From positions 1 to 11,043 of the forward strand of contig JBMFHL010000024.1 of NCBI GenBank assembly GCA_049976845.1: a stretch of DNA of 11,043 nt, given 5' to 3'. Position numbers: made by a program. Origin of the DNA: Candidatus Micrarchaeia archaeon. Its GTDB lineage: Archaea; Micrarchaeota; Micrarchaeia; Micrarchaeales; CABMGC01. Each line of letters opens with the position of its first letter. The first letter of the stretch is position 1. This document shows positions 3,001 to 6,000 of the stretch, piece after piece.

Positions 3001-6000
3001 ATGGAAGAATATACTAAATTCGAGAAAGCAAGAATAATAGGGGCAAGGGCTCTTCAGCTCGCTTATGGGGCGCCACCTCTAATTGCAGTGCCTGAAGGCG
3101 TTTACGAGCCCCTGCGTCTGGCAGAGATAGAGTTCGAGAAGGGAGTAATCCCAATAGTGGTAGTTAAGAAATAGGGGTAGAATATTTATGGATGAAAAAT
3201 ATGATGTCATAGTAGCAGGCGCAGGTGTTGCTGGGGCTTTGGCTGCAGCCTCTGCTTCGCAAAACGGCGCAAAAACCCTGCTTTTGGACAGAAATGAAGA
3301 ATCAAGCGTGGGCAAGAAAACAAACTGGGGTTGGGTTTGTGGCGATGCTGTAGCTCAGGACCATATCACCTTCGCAGAGCATGAACTCCATACCAGTTTT
3401 GGCAAGCCAGAGCTAAACCTAAAAGTAGATGGCGTATATGTAGTAAGCCCTAGCATGAAGAAGAAGGTAAAATTCGAGGGTGCAGGCTACAGCCTAGACA
3501 GGCCGTCTTTTGCGCGCAAGCTGCTCTCAATAGCAAAAAAGAGCGGTGTAGAATACATGCCCGGCATGGAAGTTGAAGGCCCTATCATAGAAAATGGCGA
3601 AATAAAAGGCGTCTTCGGCAAGGATGCAAGCAAAAGGGATTTCAGAGTAAAGGCAAAAATAGTCATAGACTCACTGGGCATGGCAAGCACAATAAGGAGG
3701 AAGTTGCCTGAAAACAAGTTCATAGAAAGAAACGTAGATATTCATGACATAGAGTCTACTGGGAGATACATACTTGATTTTGAACAGAATGGCGAAAACG
3801 AATATTACTATGATCCAAAGAATGCAATAATACACTTAAATCAGACCATGGCTCCAGGAGGCTATGGCTGGGTATTTCCTAAGGAAGGAAAGGTTGTAAA
3901 TGTGGGAATAGGCGTCGAGAAGGCAAGCCTCGAAATAAGAAACAGCAAACTCGGCAAGAAGGACACGCTTCATAGCTTAATAGATCAGTATGTCGAATGG
4001 AATCCGCTGCTAAAGGACACAAAAATAAACAGCAAAGATGCCAACGGAAAAGGGTACTGGTCTGTATCGGTGAAGAGGCAGCAGGATAGTCTAGTATATA
4101 AAAATTACATGGGCGCTGGAGACAGCATGTCTATGCCAAATCCAATAAGCGCAGGCGGCATAGGCCCAGCAATGACATCTGGCATACTCGCAGGCAAGGT
4201 TGCTGCTGAAGCAGTGGCGAAAAATGACACGAGCATAGAAATGCTCTGGAAATACAATATACTATATAATGAGAAATATGGAAAGAAGACAGCTTCCCTT
4301 GAAGCCTTTAGGATATATTTGCAGTCGCTCAATAACGAGCTGATAGACTATGGTATAGAGCACTTCTTGACAGACGAAGAAGCCATACAAATGAGCTATG
4401 GCATAACGCCAGAATTGAGCTTTGCAAGCACACTGAAGAAAGCGATAAGCGGCATCGCCAATATAAACGCTTTCAAGAATCTCATATTTGTAGTAGGCAA
4501 AATGAAGAACCTCAATAAGCTTTATGAAAATTATCCAAAAACTCCAAATGAATTTGATGCATGGCAAAAACTCGTAAGAAACGAGATAAAAGAGGTAAAG
4601 GAGAGATTTGCTCCGAATCCAGTATAAAATTTAGCTGCTCAGTAAAAAATTTACAAGATTAAAAAACAGCTGGCAGTACAGAAAAGCCAGCAAAGACTAT
4701 GATAAGAATCACCAAAGTTTTCTCGCAAGAGTTAAATACCTTTGCGTGAAAATATCTATCACATTTGTCGTTACTATTTAAATTTTTGTAGGCTAATATT
4801 ATTGGCTATATTCTAGTGGTTTTATGGCTGATCTAGCTAGGGACATAAGGCTTGCAGTGGATACGGGCAAGGTAGCCCTCGGTTACCGAGAGGTAGCAAA
4901 GTCTATAAGCGAAGACAAGGCGAAGGTTGTAATTATAGCAGAGAAAGGCGACAAAAATAGGATAAACGACCTGATACACCTGTGCAACATATCTGGCATA
5001 AAACTATGGAAGTACAACAGCGGCTCGATAGAGCTTGGAACAGTCTGCGGAAAGCCTTATTCAGTGAATGCTGTAGCCGTAATAGACCAGGGTCATTCAA
5101 ATATATTAAATGAAAGTTATTAATTTGATTAGGTGCATCATGTGCCACGAGGAGAATTTGCAGCAAAAGAAATCCTGAAGAAGAGGAAAAGGCAGCGTAT
5201 GCTTAAGAAATGGTGGAAAAGGAAATATTTCAAGCTCAAGGCAAAGCATGACCCTGTAGGGACTGTGCCTATGGCAAAGGGTATAGTATTGCAGAAGTTC
5301 ATGCTTCAGCAGAAGCAGCCACACAGCGGTCTGATAAAATGCGTGAGGGTGCAGCTTATTAAGAACGGGAAAGTTGTTGGCGTTTATGTGCCTGAAGATG
5401 GCGCAATAAACTTTATAGACGAGCACGACGAGGTAACAATACAAGGCCTTGGCGGCTCGCAAAGAGGCCAGATGGGATGTATTCCTGGACTTAAGTATAG
5501 AGCTATAGCAATAAACGGCATAGATCTAAGACAGATTGTAAAAGGCAAGAAGGAGAAGCCGAAGAGGTAATTTGATGGCTGATGATAATGCAACTGATAA
5601 AGGAAGAGAGCAGGCAAGCAGTGTAGCTCCAACAGAGAATGCTGCAGTTAAGGCTAAGCGCAGCGCAAAGAATATTCAGAGCGTAAATCCACCTGCGCAG
5701 GAAGGCGAAGCAGCAACAGCTAAGCAAGCTGCAAAGCCGAAGCGCTCAAGGAAAACCGATGCAGTAGCAGAGGAACAGCTCCTGTTCGGAAAATATTCTT
5801 TTTCAGGCATAACAATTGCAGACCAAAGCTTCTCTAATTATCTAAGTTTAATGCCAATGAAATATCCAAACATATATGGGAGAAGGAAGCAGCAAGCTTA
5901 CTACTTCTCACATGCAAATGTTATTGAAAGGCTCATGAACAAGCTCATGCGAGGCGGTACAGGCAAGAAAGTCGGCGGCAGGGTCATAAGGACAGAAGGC

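Follow-up and report, generated by a model that had tools for sequence, protein, structure and literature searches.

Reviews describe archaeal NusA as a pair of KH domains only, with an unclear function, the S1 and polymerase-binding parts possibly coming from Rpo7 (PMC7289017, PMC8116511, PMC13681488). Two of them propose a division of labour between Rpo7 and the KH protein (PMC7289017, PMC8116511). The gene occurs as NusA1 (TIGR01952) and as a paralogue, NusA2. In the supplementary data of PMC6249222, NusA1 and NusA2 were both scored as essential in S. islandicus, and the match in M. maripaludis was marked as essential. For ARMAN-2, the accessible part of the published account called the clusters 'split and not conserved' and doubted the assembly; it named no nusA loss.

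The locus analysed here lies in a window of 11,043 nucleotides on contig JBMFHL010000024.1, from a Candidatus Micrarchaeia archaeon of the order Micrarchaeales, a group of very small symbiotic archaea; its genome (G000) comprises 731 kb in 52 contigs and is 90% complete. The window contains an archaeal str cluster in the order eL30, uS12, uS7 and EF-2, followed by L7Ae, eS28 and eL24. The features around the former nusA site are these:

3001-3174, + strand: rpoK, an upstream neighbour in place of rpoA'' (family-profile search).
3188-4627, + strand: geranylgeranyl-reductase-family gene, an upstream neighbour in place of rpoA'' (family-profile search).
4628-4823, no strand: intergenic stretch of 196 nt located 5' of eL30 (sequence; compared with outgroup loci).
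4824-5123, + strand: eL30 (rpl30e), 99 aa, bordering the former nusA site on its left (PRK01018/NF002172, 96.8 bits, over cut-off).
5124-5141, + strand: 18-nt spacer with the uS12 ribosome-binding site inside; nusA1 (~420 nt) lies here in other Micrarchaeota (sequence).
5142-5570, + strand: uS12, 142 aa, GTG start, right flank (TIGR00982, over cut-off).
5575-6375, + strand: uS7 (TIGR01028 covers residues 68-266).
6381-8573, + strand: EF-2, the remainder of the str cluster (sequence; order the same in ingroup and outgroup loci).

The site 5' of eL30 is occupied by rpoA'' in most outgroups. Here the intergenic stretch 4628-4823 lies in its place, so the eL30 cluster probably has its own promoter; a sigma-70 scan of this stretch, with a model that is not applicable to archaea, returned nothing above chance. 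Within the flanks retrieved, the link between rpoA'' and eL30 is also broken in 12 of 50 loci that have NusA, so its break is an event separate from the loss of nusA. The ORF finder placed the uS12 start at GTG 5133. The alternative at GTG 5142 (M-P-R-G), with a Shine-Dalgarno-like aggtg at 5131-5135 on its 5' side, was preferred and is most likely the true start. It gives the spacer of 18 nt between eL30 and uS12 that the survey's finding had stated, and positions 5124-5141 hold no nusA remnant. Elsewhere in the window, uS7 has an N-terminal extension of ~60 aa (5575-5770), L7Ae is extended at both its N- and C-terminus (8591-9100), and three ORFs (1826-2935, 9525-9815 and 9966-11042) lack a Pfam or NCBIfam match.

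The outgroup gene between eL30 and uS12 is NusA1 (TIGR01952 at 135 bits; 2CXC at E 6e-43). It directly follows eL30 in all 50 outgroup loci, and uS12 comes next in 43 of them. The archaeal protein consists of two KH domains only and the reviews call its function unclear, so that the earlier description of NusA as a transcription factor is based on homology and gene position. The eL30-uS12 adjacency was assessed in 119 of 248 genomes of the order. Pairs on the same contig were found in 118 genomes, seven of them single-contig, and in all 118 the two genes lay within 204 nt of each other (HMM ends; median 30 nt). The counts for the order include two unpublished genomes, G027 and G070; when they are left out the pairs number 116 of 116 and the conclusions are unaffected. 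In 40 junctions the true gap from stop to start was 0-112 nt, with no nusA remnant (best NusA-profile E 1.5). Long distances of 127-204 nt (HMM ends) were considered as possible remnants and proved to be either AT-rich spacer or low-complexity tails on eL30, acidic for the most part. Among 80 named loci that form an overlapping set the gap was at most 50 nt in 77; the other three carry nusA and branch in another order. The ancestral nusA site is closed and holds no pseudogene, except that in the 119th genome, G051, an unrelated 81-aa orphan ORF (L610:709-954, on G051:C7) sits exactly there.

Three further observations were made on these loci. Several genomes have eL30 proteins with low-complexity C-terminal tails of 24-66 residues, mostly acidic (L604-L608, L136). 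One uS12 match in a single-contig genome (G113:C1:351456-351872) has two in-frame stops, probably sequencing errors. A record titled Methanothrix (L303) carries a Micrarchaeales-like str cluster, which is contamination in public bins.

Profile searches agreed with the closed junctions. The two matches of TIGR01952 in G000 are weak (E 0.02 and 0.06): one is uS3, the other an isopentenyl-phosphate-kinase-like protein. Across the order, no match was over the cut-off in 151 genomes. In a sample of the phylum at E<=1e-5, TIGR01952 matched 0 of 92 genomes of the order vs 109 of 109 in other orders, where 100 of the 109 had matches over the cut-off; the sole match in one of the latter, G157, is NusA2, and 108 match apart from it. 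PF13184 was below its cut-off in five of five genomes. A profile specific for Micrarchaeota NusA1 (A1), built from 38 of the 50 available sequences, was searched against the order's full set of 248 genomes and gave 48 matches at E<=1e-3, none of which is a genuine NusA. The strong match, in G279, is contamination: a full-length bacterial rimP-nusA of actinobacterial type, its NusA including a NusA_N domain, on G279:C252, a contig of 1.7 kb and 61-65% GC. The remaining 47 are partial, mostly to the second KH, in frames of 196-283 aa. As candidates for a divergent NusA the weak matches failed, with uS3 present at 36 of 37 loci checked and a 670-aa ATPase-like ORF at the 37th. Records titled Micrarchaeaceae and Mancarchaeum branch inside the clade that lacks NusA, and these titles are the basis for calling the order Micrarchaeales; the genome of the Mancarchaeum record gave no NusA match. 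These results sustain the survey's finding that G000 has no nusA, that other orders keep the gene, and that the loss is fixed in the order, the last by zero genuine copies in 248 genomes together with the 118 closed junctions. We are therefore highly confident that nusA1 was lost across the order. What is observed is an absent gene, not a new system.

NusA2 was analysed in 92 of the 248 genomes of the order, using a profile of 20 sequences whose identity was taken from PRK06418 and the structures 9FJL and 9F9U. It was found at full length in 39 of 109 genomes of other orders and in 0 of 92 of this order, in which three weak matches lay at uS3. Several families that have NusA1 are also without NusA2, so the loss of NusA2 is common and is not datable to the nusA1 event. 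The loss at the level of the order is the absence of both paralogues, and it is real and ancient. NusA2 is reportedly linked to eS7, and our profile matches support the likeness; an eS7-like replacement of NusA was looked for with PF01251, which matched in none of five genomes.

The position of the loss in the history of the order was examined with FastTree on eL30, uS12 and uS7 (55 and 74 rows; ~450 columns; no outgroup from outside the phylum). The order was monophyletic with G001 at its base (support 0.987-0.992). G001, the deepest-branching genome, already has a closed junction, of 1 nt, which puts a single deletion of nusA on the order's stem; the evidence for this is one genome, 82% complete. 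A gradual decay of NusA through sister lineages was rejected: erosion of the GXXG loops (11 of 50 sequences) occurs in families other than the sister group, and the loss therefore seems to have been abrupt. As an observation apart, the families in which NusA1 has lost a GXXG loop (loci L053-L065, in other Micrarchaeota) are also without NusA2.

The Micrarchaeales loss is not unique among archaea. In the unrelated class of Marine Group II/III (loci L456, L457, L465-L469 and L451), 149 of 151 genomes had no match at E<=1e-3, and the survey's description of NusA as universal was to that extent overstated. The class was centred on G663, whose relatives carry the titles Poseidoniales, Poseidoniaceae and Thalassarchaeaceae, and the genomes that have lost NusA are of 1-2.1 Mb; we take the class to include Marine Group III and its name to be Poseidoniia. 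The match in G779 is a bacterial NusA of 474 aa on a 1.5-kb contig (G779:C114), and is contamination. The only archaeal match in the class is in G696 (2.6 Mb; ~62% GC in the stretch read), which has an intact rpoA''-eL30-nusA; used as a query, its NusA found only itself among 61 genomes. In five of five members examined, unrelated genes follow rpoA''-eL30. Behind eL30 in two of three Marine Group II-type loci lies a conserved gene of 294-317 aa without a family match (L467:3025-3909, L469:109-1062); as a NusA candidate it was rejected (hhalign 0.1%, no Pfam match). An N-terminal extension of RpoA'' was rejected as a Marine Group II compensation, since G696 and G664, which have NusA, also have a long RpoA'' (860 and 500 aa) and the long form predates the loss. 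For the one Marine Group II genome that it covers, a supplementary table of PMC6249222 gives 'none' under arCOG01760. An independent loss of NusA in Marine Group II/III is thus quite likely, though, tested with the search at E<=1e-3, it is less firm than the order-wide loss.

Sampling of archaea beyond the phylum covered two further phyla and a small number of individual genomes. One of these, another DPANN phylum that contains the Woesearchaeota, had a NusA match at E<=1e-4 in 293 of its 301 genomes, with 263 of them over the cut-off; genomes of 500-700 kb are among those that keep the gene. When the unpublished G604 and G605 are left out the count is 291 of 299, and the conclusions are again unaffected. 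Single genomes of Aenigmatarchaeota, Nanohalarchaeota and Pacearchaeota have NusA as well. Small genome size alone therefore does not explain the loss, because genomes of 500-700 kb keep the gene, and NusA loss does not track genome size, because marine genomes of 1-2.1 Mb have lost it.

The order retains other factors that act with the polymerase. Spt5, Rpo7 (with its S1 domain) and FttA were kept in five of five order genomes tested, and Spt4 is present in G000. A motif scan for TFS found none in G000 or G029, and none in the outgroup G180 either, so that it does not set the order apart. Two side observations concern the transcription machinery: RpoA' and RpoA'' form a fused largest subunit in one open frame of ~1,180-1,200 aa in some genomes (G001:C3:6771-10313, L464; G043:C21) and split in most members, and two proteins of ~100 aa that resemble single TBP repeats (G000:C1:80747-81040 and C2:19564-19869) are both conserved in G029.

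Archaeal NusA1 may be a small accessory RNA chaperone, a KH pair only. The Rpo4/7 stalk would stand in for those parts of bacterial NusA that contact the polymerase and the exiting RNA, and FttA, with KH domains of its own, would handle termination and coupling together with Spt4/5. The KH pair could then be dropped, and cells of the order would run NusA-free transcription, as those of Marine Group II/III would do independently. That such redundancy explains how the loss is tolerated has, in our judgement, about an even chance. S. islandicus and M. maripaludis both have Rpo7, Spt5 and FttA. Simple redundancy is probably insufficient and some compensating change needed, because NusA1 and NusA2 are scored as essential in S. 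islandicus and the match is so marked in M. maripaludis; no compensating mechanism was found. It is a tentative suggestion that Micrarchaeales and Marine Group II/III each became NusA-free through a specific change in the polymerase or in partners at the RNA exit, such as, in Micrarchaeales, an SmAP recruited to the polymerase operon.

A different account takes archaeal NusA1 to be a factor of rRNA or ribosome maturation that was lost in a wave of losses of RNA-maturation genes. Cbf5 matched in 0 of 71 genomes of the order's two large families vs 78 of 80 in other orders, Pus10 was absent from 22 of 22 order genomes tested (a weak match in G001 is its Cbf5), and the matches of NusA2 to eS7 point the same way. 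A screen of 297 soluble proteins of the outgroup genome G180 (50-420 aa; 297 of the 499 that BLAST did not match to G000 or G029) recovered NusA1 as positive control and pointed to Cbf5, Pus10, RtcA, an MCT-1-like protein and eL20. The last three were checked by single-sequence search, which found neither RtcA nor the MCT-1-like PUA protein in G000 and G029. The losses are uncoupled, however. Basal G001, which lacks NusA, keeps Cbf5 (L603, G001:C11:1692-5483), so Cbf5 was lost after NusA. Marine Group II/III members without NusA keep Cbf5 (4/4) and Pus10 (9/9), and Pus10 is also gone from many families that have NusA. Cbf5 and Pus10 do not track NusA, and an obligate co-loss of NusA with either of them was rejected. 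We consider the maturation account doubtful. With Cbf5 and Pus10 both missing, which enzyme makes pseudouridine 55 in tRNA is a separate matter that is unexplained in the order.

The job of NusA might instead have been taken over by another RNA-binding protein, for which the candidate here is the SmAP encoded behind rpoA'', in the former place of eL30-nusA. Of 30 order loci, 21 have a gene with an LSM domain (Sm-like, SmAP) immediately behind rpoA'', and both large families are among them (L189-L216; for example L203:2115-2351 on G000:C8). SmAP is a common archaeal protein. The gene is absent from that place in basal G001, which is already without nusA, and in five of five Marine Group II/III loci, and membership of one operon is no proof of a common function. 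The takeover is unlikely on these grounds, and tolerance through the stalk, Spt4/5 and FttA remains the better reading. In L214 tRNA-Ala follows; ARAGORN found this in one of five loci tested.

That NusA is present but has moved and diverged beyond recognition, or survives as a shrunken copy, for instance in the 81-aa ORF of G051, is still less probable; the survey's finding had allowed for a NusA beyond the reach of HMMs. Decay does occur elsewhere in Micrarchaeota: 11 of 50 NusA1 sequences are without one or both GXXG loops, and one NusA1 is only 21% identical to the reference. Yet when six fast-evolving families were left out of the profile, 16 of 16 of their decayed NusA1 copies were recovered at E<=7e-13 against the G000 background, and the group nearest to the order has mostly canonical NusA1. 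Six-frame translations of G000 and of G029, the latter a single contig of 814 kb covered in full, were searched by hmmsearch without filters, using NusA1, NusA2 and pooled profiles; the best E values were 0.016-0.5, and uS3 was the only recognisable KH match. Profile-profile comparison by hhalign of 203 two-sequence families (95-240 aa, common to G000 and G029) gave 55% for uS3 and 9% for the next best. Since single-sequence searches can miss small diverged proteins (eL31 reached only E 0.26 in this way), the absence rests on the profiles and their control.

The ORF of G051 lies exactly between eL30 and uS12, at P ~0.02-0.08 against NusA profiles (single comparisons). It shows no KH domains with GXXG loops, no likeness to NusA and no family match, its hhalign probability as NusA is 0.2%, its relatives are identical copies only, and a low-confidence structural model looks ACT/ferredoxin-like, not KH. 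The closest kin of G051 have a closed junction, and the ORF is therefore read as a late insertion, although the P of 0.02-0.08 leaves a slight doubt. A hidden or remnant NusA is accordingly very improbable. An artefact of assembly or binning, to which the 90% completeness and 52 contigs of G000 might point, is refuted by the closed junctions, which place both flanking genes on one contig in 118 genomes, seven of them single-contig, and by uS12 and eL30, each of which was recovered in 119 of the 121 genomes in that set.

Taken as a whole, the explanation that we favour with good confidence is one ancient deletion on the stem of the order, with NusA1 and NusA2 absent and the loss perhaps tolerated via the stalk, Spt4/5 and FttA. 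No report of NusA loss in Micrarchaeota, marine group II or Poseidoniales was found in the literature covered, which left out most subscription papers; the main text of PMC5498576 does not mention 'NusA', and three supplementary files of PMC7414124 gave no NusA match. The two losses contradict the statement in a review that all archaea encode NusA. Two independent clean losses mean that a core gene scored as essential is dispensable, and they provide two natural knock-outs, with NusA-positive sisters, for tests of co-evolution. If this reading is true, comparison with those sisters would expose the role of archaeal NusA. The marine loss, in a major ocean group, indicates that NusA loss goes beyond the decay of symbiont genomes. 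TIGR01952 belongs to the archaeal markers of GTDB; wherever it serves as a marker or as a measure of completeness, both groups will invariably be counted as lacking it.

The locus can be set against the known systems as follows. Archaeal NusA1 (TIGR01952, arCOG01760; A. pernix 2CXC) is the gene that is present in the outgroups and absent here. Its paralogue NusA2 (arCOG01761, PRK06418; 9FJL, 9F9U), related to eS7 and bearing a Zn-finger, is likewise absent from this order (0/92). The archaeal str cluster keeps its order of eL30, uS12, uS7 and EF-2, but nusA has been excised from it and eL30 detached from rpoA''. Like the core-gene losses of reduced DPANN archaea, the loss of NusA stands beside others, this order being also without Pus10 and, basal G001 apart, Cbf5. 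Unlike this order, the other DPANN phylum keeps NusA (293/301), and marine archaea with genomes of 1-2.1 Mb lose it.
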